Below, one piece after another: positions 1 through 61,205 of a DNA stretch of 64,000 nt (position 1 is the stretch's first letter; each line of letters starts with the position of its first letter). The position numbers and the translations under genes are program-made. Under the pieces are notes generated by a model. That model did not search any database, was not told the origin of the DNA, and worked only from the letters and a program-made list of their open reading frames with translations. Source of the stretch: a virus; the UHGV virus genome UHGV-0198106. One strand, written 5' to 3'.

Positions 1-534
1 ATGGCGATGCCAGATTTCAGAGGAGCTTTTACATACGATCCAAATACTGGGCACCTTTTCTGGTCAATGAGTAATATCTACAATAAACAGAAAGGACAAC
101 GTGCTGGGTGTGTTAATAGCAGGGGGTATCGTATACTGACCTTCAAGAAGAAATCATATCTAGAGCATAGAGTCATAGCTGAAATGTTTATACCTAGAAT
201 AGAAGGTAAAGATCAGATTAACCACAAGAATGGGGTTAAAGATGACAACAGACTTGAGAATCTTGAATGGTGCACAGGTAGTGAAAATTGCCAGCATTCT
301 GTAGATACAGGTCTTATGAAAGTTAAAAGTCTTGAAGAAAATCCAAATTCAAAACTTACTAAAGAGCAAGTCCTCTTCTGTATAGAGAACTATAAACCGA
401 GAGATAGTGAATTCGGCGCTAGAGCCTTATCTAGGAAATTTGGTGTTAACAAAAGCACAATATCTCTCATCATTAATGGTACAAACTGGAAAGGAGTTAA
501 ATATGAGCATGCCAGAAGTACAAAACCCGATTAA
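1..534 (+). CDS. HNH homing endonuclease (HNH_3-type)
   Basis: Track ORF; motif INHKNGVKDDNRLENLEW typical of phage HNH endonucleases; ATG sits at window position 1, so the true 5' end may lie upstream. Confidence 0.7.
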   Translation: MAMPDFRGAFTYDPNTGHLFWSMSNIYNKQKGQRAGCVNSRGYRILTFKKKSYLEHRVIAEMFIPRIEGKDQINHKNGVKDDNRLENLEWCTGSENCQHSVDTGLMKVKSLEENPNSKLTKEQVLFCIENYKPRDSEFGARALSRKFGVNKSTISLIINGTNWKGVKYEHARSTKPD

Positions 535-1255
535 CACGTATGGCTGGCTTAAGAAAGCTGTTGCCTTGTGGGCCGATCGAGATGATGACGAATTTGTTAA
601 TCAAATTCCAAACTTTATTAACTTTGCAGAGAAAGAGATTTATCGTAACTTACGTATTCCTCCTCTGGAAAAAGAAGTCTATTTAGATATCAAAGATGGA
701 GTGGCTTATATTCCTCCTGATTACTTAGAAGCTCAATGGATGATGAGAGCCAAAGATGGTACAATCTTCCAAGTAACATCTCCTGAGGAGATTAGCTATC
801 GTAGGCAGCATGGAACAATTAACCCATCTCACTGGAATAACCAACCTGTTAATTTTGCTCGTTTCGGGAGTCGTTTCATTTTCTACCCTAGCATTGAAGC
901 AGATACTCCATACTACCCTGATGATGGAAGCCCTTTGATTCCAGCAGAAAACTCAGTAATTCTTAGTTACTATGCAGACCCACCGGAATTCCATGAAGAC
1001 GCAGACACTAGTGCTATCCTTACTATCGCACCAGAACTTCTTCTGTACTTCACCCTACGTCATGCTTGTCTGTTTGTTCAAGATGATAACGGTGTTCAGA
1101 AATGGTCAGCATTAGGAAAAGCTATCCTTGATGAAATGGTAGAGCAGAATAAGAAACAGGAGTATTCAGGTTCACCTATCGCAATTCCGAACAACATGAC
1201 TCGACTTCAGAGCAGCCTGCCTGACATTTATGGCATTCGTACATCTCGTCCATAA
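503..1255 (+). CDS. hypothetical virion-module protein
   Basis: Track ORF 407..1255 trimmed to first in-frame ATG (503), preceded by AAGGAG at 491-496; overlaps 3' end of the HNH gene; no recognisable motif. Confidence 0.5.
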   Translation: MSMPEVQNPINTYGWLKKAVALWADRDDDEFVNQIPNFINFAEKEIYRNLRIPPLEKEVYLDIKDGVAYIPPDYLEAQWMMRAKDGTIFQVTSPEEISYRRQHGTINPSHWNNQPVNFARFGSRFIFYPSIEADTPYYPDDGSPLIPAENSVILSYYADPPEFHEDADTSAILTIAPELLLYFTLRHACLFVQDDNGVQKWSALGKAILDEMVEQNKKQEYSGSPIAIPNNMTRLQSSLPDIYGIRTSRP

Positions 1256-3835: not shown

Positions 3836-3910
3836 GTTAGTAGCGAGTGTCAATAAGTGGTAATGAAATCATTATACTAATAAGAGGTTAATATATAGGA
3901 GACATTAAAA

Positions 3911-13347: not shown

Positions 13348-14997
13348 ATGCAACAGACAACTTACGCTCAGGTCAGAAGTCGTGACCCGAGAAATACTTT
13401 CTATGGTGTTAATCCGGGAGCGGCTTCGGCCTCTCCTTATATGGCGAGACCTACTCAGACAGCAGATATTTCTATGTATCAACGACCTGCTATACCTGCT
13501 GGACTTTCTTCTCTTGTAGGTCAGACTTCAGTCGACTATCAGAATATGTTGAATCCTGTTCAGAGTAACGGGCTTCCTTCTGATATTCCGAATGATGTAC
13601 AACCTCAAGCACAACAGGCTGTAACTCTTCCTGAGTTTGAGAACCAAGAAACCATGCAAGCTGCTGGACTTTCTCCTTCTTCTATTCCTCAAGAATCAGA
13701 ACCTCTTCCGGTAACGCCTCCTACTAAACCGCTAGAAGCTGGTCCTATGGAGTTTACTCCTTCTCAGGTGGAACAGGCACAAGGTGTGATTAACACTCTT
13801 GCTCAAGGACAAGACACTGGTGATGGAATGGCTGCTGCTACTCGTGCTAAAGATCAAGAGCGTGTTAACAATGATATCTTGCAAGTTGCGAAAGCTAAAG
13901 ACCCTTCAGAAGCTTGGAACAAGCTACAGAAAGAGCCATTCTATCAGAACTCTAGTTTCTATACAGGTTTGATGGGTGTTGGTCTTTCAATCATGTCAGG
14001 TAAGTCTCCTATCGAAGCTTTCCAGATTGGTCAAGGTATGGCTAACCAAGACGAGACTAAGAAGCAACTGGAAGCTAACCGTGATGCTTTGATTGAACAA
14101 GGCTTCTCTCAAGACTCAATCGCAGCTGCTATTGCTAACGGAGACCCATCACTGCTGAAGATGAAAGCTGTAGACCCTGCTCAGAAAGAAGCATTGTATG
14201 CTGCTCGTGAAGAACGTCAGAATGCTGAATGGGATAGACGTCAACAGATTCAAGAGCAGACTATGCGTGAGCGTGCTGATGAGACTCGTCGTGCCGCTGA
14301 AGAAAGAGCTAACATGAACTTTGAACGTCAGAAAGAGTTGATTGGCTTCCGTGATAAGGTTAAGGCTGAACGTGCTGAACAAGCTGCTCAGAGTTTTAAC
14401 TTTAACCCGAAAGAAGTTCGTCTTGCTCAGAACACAGCTGAGGGTACAGTTGCTAAGCAGTGGGCAGAGAAAGGTGGTCTGTTTAACCAGTCCAACAAAG
14501 ACTTGGATTTGGCTGACAAGGCTGTTAAGGATAAAGACTATCAGACAGCTCGTTCTGCTTACATGCAGGCTATCATGAACTCCGCAAGGGCTGAAATTGG
14601 TGCTACTCGTTCTCTTACCGAAGAAGACTTGGGGCACTTTGCAGAAGACCCATCAATCTTCATTCGTGTTGGCAACAAGTTTGCACTGAAGTCTGGATGG
14701 CGTCCTACTGATGCTGCTCTTTCTTATGCTCGTAAGCAAGCTAACGTTGGTCACACCTCTGCAATGAAAGGTGTTGCTGATGCTAAGAAAGCGACAATTG
14801 AAGCTTACATCGGTTCTGGTATGGATAAGAAGAGAGCTACTGCATTGGTTAACCGTGCAATTCCTTCTGGTGGTTTCTATGACCCTCTAGGTGTTTTCTC
14901 TGAGCAAGCGGAAGAATCTGTTGGGGGTGCAGCAACCAACCCTAAGCTTAATGGTGCTTTATCAGCTGTCGAAGACACTAGCTGGTTCACGCAATAA
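13348..14997 (+). CDS. virion protein, function unknown
   Basis: 549 aa; TTAGGAG upstream; Pro/Gln-rich N-terminal part and charged helical C-terminal part. Confidence 0.5.
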   Translation: MQQTTYAQVRSRDPRNTFYGVNPGAASASPYMARPTQTADISMYQRPAIPAGLSSLVGQTSVDYQNMLNPVQSNGLPSDIPNDVQPQAQQAVTLPEFENQETMQAAGLSPSSIPQESEPLPVTPPTKPLEAGPMEFTPSQVEQAQGVINTLAQGQDTGDGMAAATRAKDQERVNNDILQVAKAKDPSEAWNKLQKEPFYQNSSFYTGLMGVGLSIMSGKSPIEAFQIGQGMANQDETKKQLEANRDALIEQGFSQDSIAAAIANGDPSLLKMKAVDPAQKEALYAAREERQNAEWDRRQQIQEQTMRERADETRRAAEERANMNFERQKELIGFRDKVKAERAEQAAQSFNFNPKEVRLAQNTAEGTVAKQWAEKGGLFNQSNKDLDLADKAVKDKDYQTARSAYMQAIMNSARAEIGATRSLTEEDLGHFAEDPSIFIRVGNKFALKSGWRPTDAALSYARKQANVGHTSAMKGVADAKKATIEAYIGSGMDKKRATALVNRAIPSGGFYDPLGVFSEQAEESVGGAATNPKLNGALSAVEDTSWFTQ

Positions 14998-15017
14998 GAC
15001 CTAAGTCCTGCCTTCTA

Positions 15018-15026
15018 TAATGTATA
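15018..15026 (+). promoter_or_regulatory. TAATGTATA motif upstream of the 1,435-aa gene (candidate phage-specific promoter element)
   Basis: Exact 9-mer ~40 nt upstream of the start codon; the same 9-mer recurs at 23543-23551 and as reverse complement at 23471-23479. Confidence 0.3.
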
Positions 15027-15064
15027 TAGGGGGTAGGACATTTTTATTTATAAAAGGAGACGTT

Positions 15065-18000
15065 ATGGCTAACATTAAACCGTGGGAAGAAGCTTCCAAA
15101 GCTCCTGCGTATCTGAATGCCTCTCCGGAGCGTCAAGCTCAAATGAGAGAACAATATAAGGCAGCAGGTGGCTCTATTCCTGAGGAACAACCAGTAGCAC
15201 AACCACAACAAGAAGAACGTGGTGCTATAGGTGAGTTTGCTCAAGGTGTGTCAAATGCTCTTCAATCTGGTGGTGCAAATATCTCTGCTAATCTTGCTAG
15301 AGGTATTGGAGGCTTAGTTGAGATTGGTGAAGATCTAACTGGAGCACAAACTGGTTACGGGAAGCGTATGCAAGAGAACGCTCAAAACCTCTTGAAAGAA
15401 CGTATGGATAAGATTGAGGATGGGATTGGTAAGTCTGCTGGTCAGTATGCTGGGGTGGTTGCCGACATTGGTCTGACAGTTGCTAACCCATTAGCTGCCG
15501 CTGCTATCATTGCAGGTCGTGAGACCGGTCGTGCATATGCAGACCAAACCCCTAAAGAGGGGGAAGATAAGTCTGTTCTAGATGCAGCCCTAGTTGGTGG
15601 TGCTAACTATGCAGCTCAAAGAATCCTTCCGGGTGCTGTTGGGACAGCTGAATCAGCTCTTGGTCGTATCGGTCAGAACGTTGCTAGTAACGCAGTGGCT
15701 GGTGCTAAAGGTGGTGCTCTTGTTGGTGCTGCTGAGGTTCAGAACAAATATGGTGATGACAATGATCTAGCTAAGACATTGGAAGGTGTTATAGAAGAAG
15801 GGGCTATGGGTGCTGCATTTGGTGGCGCAGTTGGTGGAGTTCATGGTTTGATTAGCCGTCCGGATTCTGCTGTCTTCAAGAACACTCCAGAGTATGCGAA
15901 GACTGATATTGCTGCTGATGACGAACTGATTCGTAGTGCTAAAAATATTGATGAATTGAAAGAAGCTTACTCTAAAGCTGAAACTGCTAACGCTGCTTCT
16001 GCTCTGAATCTTCTGGATGAGAATGGATTCCGTATTACAGATGCTGTTGCTGTAGATTCTCCTGCTGCTCAGCGTATTCTTAATACTGACCAAGCTCGTG
16101 CTGAGAAAGCTGCTTCTGTTCAGAAAGAACATTCCAATATTCCTGGCCTTAATCCTTTAGCTTCTCCTGCTAAGACTCGTGGTAAAGCTTTCGCTGATAA
16201 TGAGCACAACCAGAAACAGGCTGTTGCTATGAAGGATGCGATGGCTGACTACACCAAAGACAACACGAAAGCTCTTACAGATGTTCTAGATAACCTAGAC
16301 CGTGAATTAACTTCTCTCCGAGCTTCTGGTGATTTTACTGGTAGTCCGATTGATATTAAGAATCGTACACAAGCTGACCGTGATTTCATTGATGCTTACA
16401 AGACTTTCTACAATGAAGCAAATCGATTCAAAGCTCGTGAAGGTGAAGATTTTAATAACTTTGTAGAGAAAGCTACTGAACTACAGAAGATGGCTGATAA
16501 TGTTTCTCCAGAGATGAAGAAAGCTATCGGTGGGTTGAAGAAACTGAAAGGTATGCCTGAAGGTTTTAATCCTATCCAAGATGCTTACACTCTGAACAAT
16601 ACGGCTAAGTTCATGAGCAACCAAGATCGTGGCTGGACTTCCCTGACTGATGATGGCTTCCGTGAGGCTTCTTCTCCTAGTCTGGTAATGAATACTCTCG
16701 GTGCTGCTAAATATGCTCTGAATCGCTTCTCTTCTCAGCGTGCTCGCTCTCAACGTGTTAAGCAACAAGAATCTAACAGTGAAGCTATCCGCTCTTTAGC
16801 TCGTGGTGATTTGGAAGTTGCTCGTGCTAAATCTACTGCTGATGAAGCTCGGGCTAAGATGGAAGAAGAACCAGTTGTTGATGACATTAAATTTAAGACT
16901 CAAAATGATGTGGAAACCGAACCGGTTCGGGAGCCTTCTTCTAGTACTGTGACGGAAGAAAATCTTCCTTCCTCTGCTCCTCAAGAAACCCCTCTTACGG
17001 CTCGTGATTTAGTTGCTCAAAGACGCGCAGTTAAACAGGCAGAACAACGTCGTGCTCAAGAAGAGGCCGCACAGGCTCCAGAACCAACTGTAGAGGAACC
17101 AACAGTCAAAGCTGAGCCATTACCTGCCCGTGCTCCTAAAGCTCCTAAGGAAGCTGTACAGGACGTTAAACCGGCAAGTGGTGTAGAACGTTTAGCTGCT
17201 ATGTCTAGTGCTGCTCGTCAGGCTACTAAAGATCGTGCAGAACGTTTTGCTCGTTCTCTGTACTCTAAAGCTGCTAAGGCTAAAGCTACTGCTGAAAACT
17301 TCTTGGCTTATAAAGGTGACCCTAAGGAATTGATGCGTCGCATTCGTCAGGAAGATAATGCTATCAACACTGAACGTCATGAAGAAATGGCTCGTAACCA
17401 GCTAGCTTCTCAGCAAGGTATTGCTACTGCTAAGAACAACACTGTACGAACTAATTTTGCTGAATGGGTTAAGGAACGTGGTCTACCAGAAGACATTGCT
17501 ACTAAGGCATTACGTGCTGAGGAGAAAGGTTTAGGTGGGAACGTGACTAACTTGGATAGTCTGAAACGTCGTGCTGAAAGATTGTATCAGAAGCAGCGTG
17601 AGGATGAGTTTGATAGGTTGTATCAACAAGCTCTAGAAGAGAACAAAGCTTTTGATAGGAAAGATGCTCCTAAACTGGTTGACCAGAAGAAAGAGCTTCA
17701 GTCTGAGATTGATGCTTTGATTGATTCAGAACCTTTACGTCCTGCTCAGAAAGATGCTATGCGTAAGTTGATGAATGACTTTGTAGATGGGAAGTTTAAA
17801 TCTTCAGAGAAGGCTGGTAGGGAGGAGGCTTTGGAAGTTGGTCAGATGAAGGATATTTGGGATGGGTTTATTAACACCTATAACAGAGAAGTGAATGCCT
17901 TCAATAAAGCTAACAAAAACTCTCAGTACGAAGCTTTTGCTAAACACATACAAGCTCGTGAAGAACGTCTTGCTACTCTGAAAAACAAAGCTCAGGCTCG

Positions 18001-21201: not shown

Positions 21202-22372
<1,171 letters not shown>

Positions 22373-22664: not shown

Positions 22665-23411
22665 TCAGAAAGGCGAATCGTTATCATCTTCATAAGTAGA
22701 AGCAGGCTCTTTATCAATCGTAGGGATTGAAGGAGTAGCTTCTTTCTGTTCTGTTTCAGAAGCACGAGTAATTTCACGACCAGCCAGAGGCATGTTCTTA
22801 GCGTCATTAGCTTGAGTAAGCAGGTTGCGCTGGAACGGGAACATCAGTTGATAGGATGCTACGTTCTCATCGGTTTCAGCATATGGTTCGAAGAATACCA
22901 GAGGACTACGAGCTTCACCAACTGCTGCACGGTATTTGGTTGGGATTGGAGAAATGGTCTTGATGGAGTTTTTAACTTCACCAGCTTTATTAGTGTAAGA
23001 GTTAACCAGAATGTTAACAGGCTGACCTAACAGAACATCCTTGAACCAAGATAGATCACCTTTCAGTGCTTGAATGCTTGGGTCAATCATCTTGCAAAGA
23101 TCAAGAATACCAGAGTTCTTAGCTCGTGGGTTTACATCATAGCTCTTGAACTGGCAAGCCGGACGTGGTTCTAATGCCTTACCATCGGAATCTTTACCAG
23201 TAGCATCAACGCCAATCAGCTCGAAAGCTAAATCCATACGGAATGCTGGATTCTTAGGAGTTACTGCTTTGGTCTTCGGGTCAATCCAAGGGTCACGATT
23301 GTGAACACCCAAACCTACTACACGAACAATACGTGCTTCGTATTCACCATCAGGGATTACATCGTAGTTGGATTTACGGGAAGAAGTTGCGATAGTTGGA
23401 ATCATGCTCAT
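22665..23411 (-). CDS. single-stranded DNA-binding protein (T7 gp2.5-type candidate)
   Basis: 248 aa with acidic C-terminal tail ending DDNDSPF, as in SSB proteins; located in replication block. Confidence 0.55.
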   Translation of the reverse strand: MSMIPTIATSSRKSNYDVIPDGEYEARIVRVVGLGVHNRDPWIDPKTKAVTPKNPAFRMDLAFELIGVDATGKDSDGKALEPRPACQFKSYDVNPRAKNSGILDLCKMIDPSIQALKGDLSWFKDVLLGQPVNILVNSYTNKAGEVKNSIKTISPIPTKYRAAVGEARSPLVFFEPYAETDENVASYQLMFPFQRNLLTQANDAKNMPLAGREITRASETEQKEATPSIPTIDKEPASTYEDDNDSPF

Positions 23412-23839
23412 TATTAAATTTCCTTATTTAGTTTGAAAGATTGTTGCTCTCTTTGAGCGGTTATGTATAGTATACATTACGCTTATACCGATAAGAGTAC
23501 TATATAGTATAAGTATCTTTGGTAGTAGATATAACATACCAGTAATGTATATATTGTATAGCTGATAAAGTTATTGCACGGGACTGACGACGATAAGGCG
23601 CAGACGACAATCTCTCATAAGTTTGTAAGAAATTGAGAGACTACCGGAAGGGCAGGAGCCACCTGCGTGATAAAAATAGAGAATTAAGGAATCCTTGATT
23701 TAGGTTGTAGGGACTCCTAGGGACTTTGATTCTCTATTTAAAAGAATAGATAATTATTACATCTAACACTAAACAAATTGATACAAAAACAAGAAACTTC
23801 TCATAAACACCCATTACTTATTACCTATTATAAAGAAAG

Positions 23840-24028
23840 TTAAATCAAGCATCCATCACAAACATAATCTCCACTAAGAGACTCTTGTAACAAACGATTT
23901 TGTTCCTCTGAATATAAAGAATCTACTAACTCTTTTAACTCTGAAAGAGTAATGAAATCAATAGTATTTCCATTATCTAAAATAGAAGAGTTAAGTAAAT
24001 ATTCATTATCTTTAATTTTATTAATCAT
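23840..24028 (-). CDS. hypothetical protein
   Basis: Track ORF, 62 aa; start overlaps stop of upstream small ORF (ATGA). Confidence 0.4.
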   Translation of the reverse strand: MINKIKDNEYLLNSSILDNGNTIDFITLSELKELVDSLYSEEQNRLLQESLSGDYVCDGCLI

Positions 24029-27575: not shown

Positions 27576-27893
27576 TTATGATGAGCTTAAAGCTCCTTTG
27601 CGAGATCCAGCTGCTTTTCCAGCTCGATCACCACTTTTGCCGCCGTTTGAACGGTTTGAGCTGACTGATTCAACACGTAAGTTGCTTGACGCATTAGAGC
27701 CTCCAGACTTGACAGCTCGTTTGTGTCCAACGTCTTTACCTCTGACAGCAGCTTTTCCATCGCGCTTTTCAACGATGCGACGTGCACGGTGGCGCTGAGC
27801 ATCTCCGCTCTTGCTCCCAACGCCTGTTTCACCACGGGCAATTGCGGTACGTCTTTCTTGTGCATAATCTCTCTTTCCTACATGGTCTGCCAT
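27576..27893 (-). CDS. basic Gly/Lys/Arg-rich small protein
   Basis: AAGGAG then ATG; an alternative fully overlapping frame (27587..27865) also has a plausible RBS. Confidence 0.45.
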   Translation of the reverse strand: MADHVGKRDYAQERRTAIARGETGVGSKSGDAQRHRARRIVEKRDGKAAVRGKDVGHKRAVKSGGSNASSNLRVESVSSNRSNGGKSGDRAGKAAGSRKGALSSS

Positions 27894-27949
27894 TTAGAAC
27901 TCCTTAATATATCAGTGTACACTAAGGAGTATACATTATAAGTTACTAT

Positions 27950-31820: not shown

Positions 31821-32142
31821 TTGGGTTTTCTCCATCAAGTTCAACTGAGTTAGCAACGTTACGTGCAATATTATCCATTACCTGCTGGGTAATTACGATG
31901 CAGTTCTGTGGGTCTACTGACTTAGAACGCCCCATTTCAGGGTCATACACCTTAACTCGCTTAGCAGTTGAACCTGTAACCTGAAGAACCTTCAACAGAT
32001 ATCCCTGATTACCGATAGACCAAGCAACAACATCACGATTCTTGATAAAGCGACCAAGCATATCACGATGATAAAACTGTTGCATCACCTTGGATTTTGT
32101 AATCTCTTCAGTGGGCGGGGCCACTTTACTCAAATCTAACAT
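31813..32142 (-). CDS. hypothetical protein
   Basis: Track ORF, 109 aa; 8-nt overlap with the Dps-like start. Confidence 0.45.
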   Translation of the reverse strand: MLDLSKVAPPTEEITKSKVMQQFYHRDMLGRFIKNRDVVAWSIGNQGYLLKVLQVTGSTAKRVKVYDPEMGRSKSVDPQNCIVITQQVMDNIARNVANSVELDGENPNA

Positions 32143-32214
32143 AACTCTCTCCTGTAAAATACAAATTCTTATTGTACTCTATATACATTTGAGAGTTATC
32201 ATATCTACTACCAA

Positions 32215-38232: not shown

Positions 38233-38418
38233 TTACTCTGTAATAAAGATTTTGATTACACCACAGATTGCTGCACTCTCAAACATTGCAACAGCTTCAC
38301 TTCCCTGAAAGAAGGTCACTTTGCCATCAGAGAAGTTAAACATATCAGCATCTAGGTCCATAGCTCGCATTTCACCAGCGGCATTGGTATCTTTAAACAG
38401 AACTTTATACTTATTCAC
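38233..38418 (-). CDS. hypothetical protein
   Basis: Track ORF, 61 aa; 4-nt overlap with upstream gene. Confidence 0.35.
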   Translation of the reverse strand: MNKYKVLFKDTNAAGEMRAMDLDADMFNFSDGKVTFFQGSEAVAMFESAAICGVIKIFITE

Positions 38419-38663
38419 AGATAGGTCACTCCTTTGTCTTGTTGTGCTTCAGCGATGATACGTTCTACACATTCCATAGAATACTTATCACCACGTTTCA
38501 GGAAAGTTACAATTGCAGAGAATTGATTACCAATCATTCGCTGATTAGTAATACCCCATTCCTCACACAACTTACGCAACTCTTTACGAGAGCCTACAAT
38601 CAGAGGCTCTTTTTGTTCCATCATTCCATTTTGTACTAGATCTTCCAATGAAAACATATCCAT
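38415..38663 (-). CDS. hypothetical protein
   Basis: Track ORF, 82 aa. Confidence 0.4.
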   Translation of the reverse strand: MDMFSLEDLVQNGMMEQKEPLIVGSRKELRKLCEEWGITNQRMIGNQFSAIVTFLKRGDKYSMECVERIIAEAQQDKGVTYL

Positions 38664-50464: not shown

Positions 50465-50568
50465 AAGAGCTCTTAGCGAGGGTGACAGGACTCGAACCTG
50501 CATACTCCATTTACTTCTTTAACGACCGCTTAGAAGGCGGGGAAGATACACCCTCACTAAGAGCTCTC
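50465..50568 (-). other. structured element: 20-bp inverted repeat enclosing tRNA-like T-arm and anticodon-like hairpin
   Basis: Arms aagagctcttagcgagggtg / caccctcactaagagctctc; on the minus strand GCAGGTTCGAGTCCTGT (T-arm-like) and CCGC-CTTCTAA-GCGG (UCU anticodon-like loop); no canonical D-arm, so not called as tRNA. Confidence 0.3.
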
Positions 50569-53882: not shown

Positions 53883-54106
53883 TTTCTCAATCCTAACTTA
53901 CGTAGCACACGGCCTAACGTTGTTTCTTGCGTGATGGTATAACTAATCGCTTCATGTTCTAACGTCTCAATCTTCATTGGAGACGGATACCATTCACCAG
54001 TAAGTATACATTTACATTCAACGCCATACTTTTTAGATAGGCGGTAATGCTGACCGTTGCGAAGGTTTCTGTAGATCGTGGTATGCGTAGTTAACATAAT
54101 CGTCAC
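53879..54106 (-). CDS. hypothetical protein
   Basis: Track ORF, 75 aa. Confidence 0.4.
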   Translation of the reverse strand: MTIMLTTHTTIYRNLRNGQHYRLSKKYGVECKCILTGEWYPSPMKIETLEHEAISYTITQETTLGRVLRKLGLRK

Positions 54107-58701: not shown

Positions 58702-59356
58702 TCAATCGATAGATTCAATTTACCACTACCTGATAAGGAAAGCAAGCCCACGGGTAAACTATTTCTACTATCTATATAGGACGGGGACATACAACCGCAG
58801 GACAGACCACGGGGAAAGGTAGCTAGATAGTGCGGTAGTAATATACCACTTAAATAATCATCAACTCATAAAAGAAAAAGACCAACAGAACGCTGAAAAA
58901 AGAAAGGAATAAAAGAAATTATTAAAAGAAATACAATCATCCACTTAATTAATACATACATCATTATTGCACTCATAATCATTACATTTAGAATCATTTA
59001 CATTCAAACTATGGGGGCTTGTGACTATTACTCATGGGCATTATATCGCCTCAATCTATTGGTACAGTGGAAGACTAGCCTCTCATCCACTCTTTAAAGG
59101 GGAACTAAATAAACGGGTAGGTAATGTATTGGGTAGTATACACGGGGAAAGAATAACGGGGAGTAGGCACGGGGAAAGGTTGGAACGTGGAAGGAGGTGT
59201 AAAGGCATTGCCAATAACCCTTTTTTAAATGAGGACTCCCCCTTTTTAGGAAACGCGCGGGAAGCGGCTAGCCCCACTCGGTCAAATCAGGATTTTAAAC
59301 TCTTATATATAACTATGGAGGGTTTAATTACGGGATTGGATACTGCACATGAAGTA

Positions 59357-60680: not shown

Positions 60681-60705
60681 GCCTCCGTTGGGAGGCTTTT
60701 TGTGT
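60681..60705 (+). terminator. rho-independent terminator
   Basis: GCCTCC-gttg-GGAGGC followed by TTTTTGTGTTG. Confidence 0.8.
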
Positions 60706-60731
60706 TGTTGATAATGTAGAAGGAGTATAAA

Positions 60732-61205
60732 ATGTTTGGAGAAAACGGAGAACTCACGCCTGCACAGGTAGCTGAGATTACAGGAAGATTACCCGGAGTA
60801 ACGGAAGAACTTGAAGGCCGTGGTATGAACCCAAGCAATGGGAAGTTTCAAAAGGGAAATAAATTCGGACGACCCAAAGGTAGTAGAGGTAAGCTGACAC
60901 AATTAATGTTGGACCGTGTTGCTGCAAGTCATTTGTCTCCTGATGAAGTGTTAATTCAAATTTACGAAGATCCCAATATTCCACCTGATCTTAGATTCAA
61001 GGCTGCATCAAAAGTTGCAGATCTGGTATATCCTAAGGCGGCCTCTGTTGAAGTTAAGATTGAGGAAGAGAATGTAATCAACGAAGATTCACTGAATGCA
61101 CAAATCAAGGACTTCTTGACTGGAGCACTTGGTATCGACGTTATGCCTCCAGAAGAAGACAACTCTGAGGACGCTGAAAAGGGGGAGGAAGCGGACGAGA
61201 GTTAA
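60732..61205 (+). CDS. possible terminase small subunit / DNA-binding protein
   Basis: 157 aa immediately upstream of terminase large subunit; basic segment GNKFGRPKGSRGK and acidic C-terminus; assignment by position only. Confidence 0.35.
   Translation: MFGENGELTPAQVAEITGRLPGVTEELEGRGMNPSNGKFQKGNKFGRPKGSRGKLTQLMLDRVAASHLSPDEVLIQIYEDPNIPPDLRFKAASKVADLVYPKAASVEVKIEEENVINEDSLNAQIKDFLTGALGIDVMPPEEDNSEDAEKGEEADES

Follow-up and report, generated by a model that had tools for sequence, protein, structure and literature searches.

TAATGTATA as the very probable -10-like element of phage-sigma promoters in a phiEco32-like E. coli podophage, with five orthologous sites and one probable orphan

Does the 9-mer TAATGTATA, found at 15018-15026 just ahead of a gene for a 1,435-residue virion protein, mark promoters read by a sigma factor of the phage itself? 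A sequence-only reading of the window (the whole 64,000-nucleotide stretch of viral DNA analysed here) had proposed as much, seeing in the 9-mer a -10-type element for middle or late transcription. The phage proves to belong to the phiEco32-like podophages of E. coli (Gordonclarkvirinae): over a 10-kb stretch it shares 92-95% identity with some 70 E. coli podophages of this group, among them Paul, NJ01, ES17 and Bas91, DNA identity to phiEco32-like phages is 92-98%, and a BLAST map against phiEco32 (NC_010324, loci L001 and L002) is co-linear over almost the full length of the window. The proposal coincides with the published phiEco32 promoter scheme, to which five orthologous sites in the window can be related; TAATGTATA as a promoter element of the phage sigma factor is already known biology and not a new inference.

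As given in PMC8948821, PMC4331800 and PMC4281155, the consensus of promoters used by the gp36 holoenzyme in phiEco32 is tAATGTAtA, a single element, with transcription starting 6-8 bp downstream of it. Six such promoters, three late and three middle, are described there upstream of genes 6, 13, 26, 40, 58 and 68. Their mapping is that of Pavlova et al. (2012, J Mol Biol), as relayed by PMC8948821, PMC4331800 and PMC12276001. A cryo-EM open complex built on P68, with AATGTA centred at -11.5, has the N-terminal domain of gp36 reading A-14, A-13, T-12 and G-11: the first two through N95 and S91, the partner of T-12 through S94, and G-11 through E79 and H80 (PMC12276001). In the same structure W90 and Y83 stack at the fork, the DNA is unwound from -11 to +2, A-34 and G-37 are touched by the C-terminal domain (Y186, R187), and sigma-2-like and sigma-4-like folds are present (PMC12276001). 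The small protein gp79 inhibits the sigma-70 holoenzyme and activates that of gp36, raising the activity of P26 and P68 3- to 4-fold; transcription from P26 is gp36-dependent and gp79-activated (PMC12276001).

Both proteins have close orthologues in the window:

21468..22112, minus strand: sigma factor of 214 residues, orthologue of phiEco32 gp36 (207/212 identical, 98%)
38415..38663, minus strand: gp79 orthologue (81/82 identical, 99%), matching PDB 9m7y chain G

The first of these had been recognised as sigma-factor-like from the sequence alone, correctly so, and it matches PDB 9m7y chain F with an E value of 3e-142. All DNA- and clamp-contact residues of gp36 listed in PMC12276001 are intact in it: E79, H80, Y83, R84, W90, S91, S94, N95, Y186 and R187 are unchanged, as are D44, E47, E49, D50 and E54. 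A Pfam search gave a Sigma70_r2 match of 19.6 bits, below the 24-bit cut-off, and found no Sigma70_r4 match. The sigma factor of phage SU7 is only 79% identical overall, yet its DNA-reading helix is unchanged. In the Suseptimavirus-type phages SU7 and 4E8, TAATGTAAA is found some 18 nt upstream of the sigma gene's start (L003 8437 (-), L004 8983 (-)), a hint of autoregulation in those phages; nothing equivalent precedes the sigma gene of the window, since an ORF abuts that gene.

The sites orthologous to mapped phiEco32 promoters, together with one upstream block, are as follows:

60712..60720, plus strand: TAATGTAGA, orthologue of late promoter P6; phiEco32 1677 (+), also TAATGTAGA, with identical flanks
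15018..15026, plus strand: TAATGTATA, orthologue of late promoter P26; phiEco32 26014 (+), with flanks identical from -35 to +25
23471..23479, minus strand: TAATGTATA, orthologue of middle promoter P40; phiEco32 36632 (-)
27930..27938, minus strand: TAATGTATA, orthologue of middle promoter P58; phiEco32 42937 (-)
32182..32190, minus strand: AAATGTATA, orthologue of middle promoter P68; phiEco32 46862 (-), also AAATGTATA
32201..32214, minus strand: -35-like block TTGGTAGTAGATAT of P68, contacts to which are reported in PMC12276001

The P6, P26, P40, P58 and P68 sites have flanks identical or nearly so to those of phiEco32 between -35 and +25, and all five point the same way as the next gene, the leaders measuring 5-53 nt when start sites are extrapolated from phiEco32. 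At P26 the element, invariant in six phages, is separated by 38 nt from the start codon (ATG at 15065) of the 1,435-residue gene, in agreement with the distance of about 40 nt given in the sequence-only reading; the predicted start at about 15033 leaves a 32-nt leader. The predicted P40 start (about 23464) leaves a leader of 53 nt before the 248-residue gene-40 homologue (ATG at 23411), and TATACATTA at this promoter is invariant in 17 phages of three genera (Kuravirus, Suseptimavirus and Nieuwekanaalvirus) while its surroundings change. P58, with a predicted start at about 27923 and a leader of 30 nt before a 105-residue gene (ATG at 27893), has kept the 9-mer and leader in seven phages next to an unrelated upstream flank, a pattern of conservation that fits a promoter relying mainly on a -10-like element. 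For P68 the predicted start is at about 32175, 33 nt from the ATG at 32142 of a 109-residue gene. Between the P6 site, which closely follows a terminator-like hairpin at 60681-60696, and the gene-6 homologue (ATG at 60732) there are 11 nt, with a start predicted at about 60727; the large terminase gene comes further on. The sites at 27930 (-), 32182 (-) and 60712 (+) are additions to those first noticed, and the AATGTA core is intact at each of 15018 (+), 23471 (-), 23543 (+) and 27930 (-), these four being exact 9-mers, and at 32182 (-) and 60712 (+).

The sixth phiEco32 promoter, P13 (9101 (+)), has no counterpart here, since the window starts inside an HNH ORF inserted before the gene-13 homologue:

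1-534, plus strand: ORF for an HNH_3 endonuclease (Pfam E 6e-13), immediately preceding the gene-13 homologue (503..1255)

phiEco32 carries P13 at the place of this endonuclease insertion.

Upstream of the elements, several blocks recur. TAAGACCTA occupies exactly -38..-30 in the late promoters P13 and P26 (window 14995-15003 (+); phiEco32 L001 9078-9086 and 25991-25999), and TTGGTAGTAGATAT is common at -39..-26 to P68 and to the site at 23543 (+). P6 has TTGGGAGG there, and neither TAAGACCTA nor TTGGTAGTAGATAT is present upstream of P40 and P58. The blocks TAAGACCTA, TTGGTAGTAGATAT and TTGGGAGG suggest classes of upstream elements.

Motif counts are a poor guide to these sites. The exact 9-mer occurs four times in the window, at 15018-15026 (+), 23471-23479 (-), 23543-23551 (+) and 27930-27938 (-), the first three having been located correctly in the sequence-only reading; 0.77 copies are expected, and at least four were reached in 3/100 shuffles. 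The 8-mer AATGTATA is present in six copies against 3.0 expected, a number attained by 10/100 shuffles, and the one-mismatch set of TAATGTATA shows no enrichment over the whole window (22 against 20.3 expected). Raw counts of TAATGTATA and AATGTATA are thus only marginally above chance, and the enrichment that had been suggested as a check yields, by count, a marginal or null result. What it does bring out is location: five of the six AATGTATA copies fall in non-coding DNA, which makes up about 9% of the window on a crude ORF map (the copy at 15019 was scored as non-coding since the real gene start is at 15065), and all five are orthologous to phiEco32 sites. These non-coding sites are unchanged across three genera although their flanks diverge. 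It is therefore placement and conservation, not enrichment, that lift TAATGTATA above chance.

That so short a motif also arises by chance is seen from the intragenic AATGTATA at 54005 (-) and from a near copy at 59122, treated below. The former was rejected, its position not being conserved and the single intragenic copy of phiEco32 lying elsewhere. Two further near copies were set aside: TTATGTATA at 23461 is not conserved among the 17 phages compared, and TATTGTATA at 23552 overlaps -6..+3 of the 23543 (+) promoter and lacks A-13. A conserved TAATATATA is positioned 13 nt before the start of the holin gene (3889-3897 (+); phiEco32 L001 14828-14836). It was left unassigned, with A replacing G-11 and a predicted start that leaves a leader of only 7 nt; chance may have produced it, or it may be a -10 element for sigma-70 or a gp36 site of low strength. 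Pattern scans of IMG/VR and metagenomes returned phiEco32-like contigs only, plus one chance match (L034).

Judged by orthology and conservation, TAATGTATA is very probably the -10-like element by which E. coli core RNA polymerase bound to the gp36 orthologue recognises middle and late promoters. As has been shown for phiEco32, and here by near-identity to it, the N-terminal domain of the sigma factor would sit on the clamp helices and read A-14, A-13 and T-12 as duplex, with W90 stacking on -12 and E79 and H80 capturing a flipped G-11. DNA opening from -11 to +2 would then place the RNA start about 7 nt after the 9-mer. The C-terminal domain would grip the flap-tip helix and touch G-37 and A-34, while gp79 (38415..38663 (-)) would displace sigma-70 and stabilise gp36. 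So used, the element would mark three leftward middle promoters, at 32182 (P68), 27930 (P58) and 23471 (P40), and two rightward late ones, at 60712 (P6, for packaging and head genes) and 15018 (P26, for the 1,435-residue virion protein).

The 9-mers could instead be ordinary A+T-rich sequence or weak host sigma-70 promoters with which the phage sigma factor has nothing to do. The overall motif count, barely above that of shuffles, would sit well with this, as would the sigma-70-type promoters annotated at some middle-gene positions in the SU10 genome paper (PMC4281155) and a weak 9/12 match, TAGATA-18-TATATT, that overlaps the 23543 site in a sigma-70 scan. However, that scan (two hexamers, 16-18 bp spacing) calls none of the sites at 15018, 23471, 27930 and 32182, and what is conserved is AATGTA, whose G falls at -11, and not TATAAT. 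Three genera share an unchanged 9-mer, whereas the positions expected for a TTGACA-type -35 vary freely, P58 being an example, and gp36-dependent, gp79-stimulated transcription has been published for sequences identical to P26 and P68 of the window (PMC12276001). We regard the host-promoter explanation as very improbable.

The P26 copy calls for separate comment on account of its setting:

15005..15051, plus strand: terminator-like hairpin with a 15-bp stem and loop ATGTA, then ATTTTTATTTAT; the best-scoring terminator-like site

The hairpin proper spans 15005-15039 (-22.8 kcal/mol, z -5.0), and the P26 element occupies its apex. With the motif exactly at the apex of a strong hairpin that is followed by a T-run, the 15018 copy might be a terminator loop only, its likeness to the promoter element incidental. 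The SU7 version of the hairpin is almost as stable (-21.2 kcal/mol, z -5.0): its stem differs at five positions, all 15/15 pairs being kept, and the changes pair only as G.U on plus-strand RNA. Through these five stem changes TATAATGTATATAGG is unaltered, which a loop alone would not need, and the phiEco32 orthologue, with the same sequence between -35 and +25, has been published as late promoter P26 and has served in transcription assays (PMC12276001). That the copy is nothing but a loop is accordingly most unlikely; terminator and promoter functions are in any case compatible. The hairpin at 15005-15051 would end the upstream late operon, late transcripts stopping there. With a P26 start predicted at about 15033, inside the 3' arm, P26 transcripts would be unable to form the hairpin and would read on into the gene, and RNA from 15033 onward is predicted to be unstructured (-2.4 kcal/mol).

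The least probable alternative, an operator in which the near-palindrome TTATGTATA-G-TATACATTA at 23461-23479 binds a dimeric regulator, can point to an inverted repeat at 23460-23480 (10 nt, with a gap of 1 nt) and to a second inverted pair (23471-23480 and 23542-23551), but the left half-site at 23461-23469 is not conserved, being TTTGTATAC or TGGTATAC in Suseptimavirus-type phages while the right half (P40) is invariant, and the sites at 15018, 27930, 32182 and 60712 have no palindromic partner.

One site proposed earlier is not supported as a promoter. A near copy of the 9-mer upstream of the packaging block is indeed present as described, but it lies in the terminal repeat:

59077-59270 (approximate): terminal repeat with the physical genome end, from the BLAST map against phiEco32
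59122..59130, plus strand: near copy TAATGTATT, judged no promoter, in the terminal repeat and variable among relatives

Located some 45 nt inside the left physical genome end, the near copy is replaced by TAATGAATA in phiEco32 and NJ01 and by AAAAGTAAT in EP335 in an alignment of seven genome ends. It has T at the last position, which is otherwise invariant, and no gene within 300 nt. Being variable, orthologous to no mapped promoter and inside the terminal repeat, it was rejected as a promoter; the packaging block's actual site is TAATGTAGA at 60712-60720. The ACGGGG repeats beside the near copy are invariant while it varies. Several such (C)ACGGGG(A) repeats occur inside 59077-59270, invariant among relatives, and are possibly recognition sites for packaging or end formation.

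Comparison with known systems places the window phage close to phiEco32. The consensus tAATGTAtA is shared, five of the six promoters have equal positions and orientation, and the cognate sigma factor and gp79 are 98% and 99% identical to the window proteins; the differences are that P13 falls outside the window and that the upstream flank of P58 in the window is unrelated. A weak tRNA match at 50477-50555 (-) scores 30.2 bits against the Rfam cut-off of 29 bits and is not called by ARAGORN. Its position is orthologous to that of the phiEco32 tRNA-Arg gene, and it is possibly a divergent or decaying tRNA.

Salmonella phage 7-11 likewise redirects the host core polymerase with a phage factor of the sigma-70 family, from promoters at equivalent genome positions. 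Its gp47 late promoters, however, have a different, bipartite consensus, GTAAtg-N16-aCTA (PMC8948821), its sigma factor is only about 15% identical, and it has neither gp79 nor a middle class. The window phage clearly belongs to the phiEco32 subgroup and not to the 7-11 subgroup.

The late promoters of T4 have TATAAATA, read by gp55 together with gp33 and the sliding clamp. Common to both systems are a single element in the -10 region, a small divergent phage sigma factor and a small phage co-activator. The sequence and the proteins are nevertheless unrelated, the gp36 system has no clamp dependence, and gp36 adds a sigma-4-like domain touching -37 and -34. With ECF (group 4) sigma factors gp36 shares sigma-2-like and sigma-4-like domains and a length of about 200 residues, but Sigma70_r2 is below the cut-off, Sigma70_r4 gives no match, and the promoter lacks an AAC/CGT-type -35/-10 pair. 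PDB and several GenBank records label the gp36-type protein 'ECF sigma factor'.

There remains the copy at 23543, which precedes no gene. The features concerned are these:

23543..23551, plus strand: TAATGTATA, probable orphan and seventh gp36-type element, divergent from P40; phiEco32 36704 (+)
23519..23532, plus strand: -35-like block TTGGTAGTAGATAT of the probable orphan promoter, at -39..-26, with G at -37 and A at -34
23558..23751, plus strand: candidate non-coding transcript or element of about 190 nt, conserved and free of ORFs

Neither this site nor its counterpart at phiEco32 36704 (+) is among the six promoters given in PMC8948821, PMC4331800 and PMC4281155. The predicted start is at about 23558, and no plus-strand ORF is present downstream, in 23558..23751. 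Within the window the exact 14-mer TTGGTAGTAGATAT is found only here and at P68, in each case 10 nt upstream of the 9-mer, and G-37 and A-34 of this block correspond to the published contacts of the gp36 C-terminal domain (PMC12276001). Among 17 phages of three genera neither TGGTAGTAGATA nor GTAATGTATATA changes and the spacer between them varies, a promoter-like pattern of conservation. In contigs from metagenomes and from IMG/VR that have another left neighbour, TGGTAGTA-N15-TAATGTATA persists together with the downstream block, its spacer being unrelated. Promoter and block, preserved as a unit, span 23519-23751 (+) in the window and L001 36680-36890 in phiEco32, and the promoter points away from every gene nearby. 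The 23543 (+) site is thus a probable orphan gp36 promoter with the same bipartite architecture as P68, and it would probably fire rightward into the conserved non-coding region.

That region is composite. At +1..+17 of the predicted transcript a 5' hairpin is 100% paired in seven distinct sequences, with compensatory changes in two pairs and one G.U pair valid on the plus strand only; its covariation score was reached by 0/500 shuffles. A middle module at 23575-23643 follows, in two unrelated alternative forms. The long form, with a TCTCTCA...TGAGAGA hairpin, occurs in the window, in ECBP2 (of a different genus) and in several metagenomic contigs, and a shorter form in most Kuravirus genomes. 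The spread of the two forms across genera points to modular exchange. After the module comes a near-invariant block of about 110 nt, containing a GCAGG/CCTGC hairpin and a long hairpin, which is 92-99% identical where the DNA of the neighbouring gene (gene 40) is about 80% identical. Since this block is invariant, no covariation is seen beyond the 5' hairpin.

Rfam searches of the window and of 23400-23900 brought up nothing relevant to this region, which has no match at the gathering threshold and only noise at E values up to 10. Folding energy does not choose a strand, both strands of 23558-23760 folding about equally well against shuffles, and no canonical terminator was called there on either strand. 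Read on the minus strand, TATTTTTATC comes after the long hairpin, so that a terminator of the upstream operon provides a mundane partial explanation. GC skew gives no pointer to an origin near 23.5 kb, dominated as it is by the switch in gene orientation at about 19.4 kb.

What the orphan promoter produces may be an antisense RNA, a transcript that activates an origin, or a non-coding RNA. Promoter-dependent replication origins are present in T7 and T4. We put forward tentatively, at somewhat less than even chances, that 23543 (+) is a genuine seventh gp36 promoter serving no gene, with a transcript of about 190 nt that is a non-coding RNA or an origin-activating or priming transcript.

The outcome is a corrected promoter map, with predicted start sites, in which five promoters have phiEco32 orthologues and one site is rejected. 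This phage very probably uses the well-studied sigma replacement of phiEco32, gp36 with gp79, so that its middle and late transcription units can be annotated precisely. At P26, a late promoter nested in the terminator of the preceding operon would constitute a compact transcription reset. Of all this, only the orphan promoter with its conserved target might repay experiment: should the region be transcribed, the phiEco32-like group would have its first assigned non-coding product or origin-type element.
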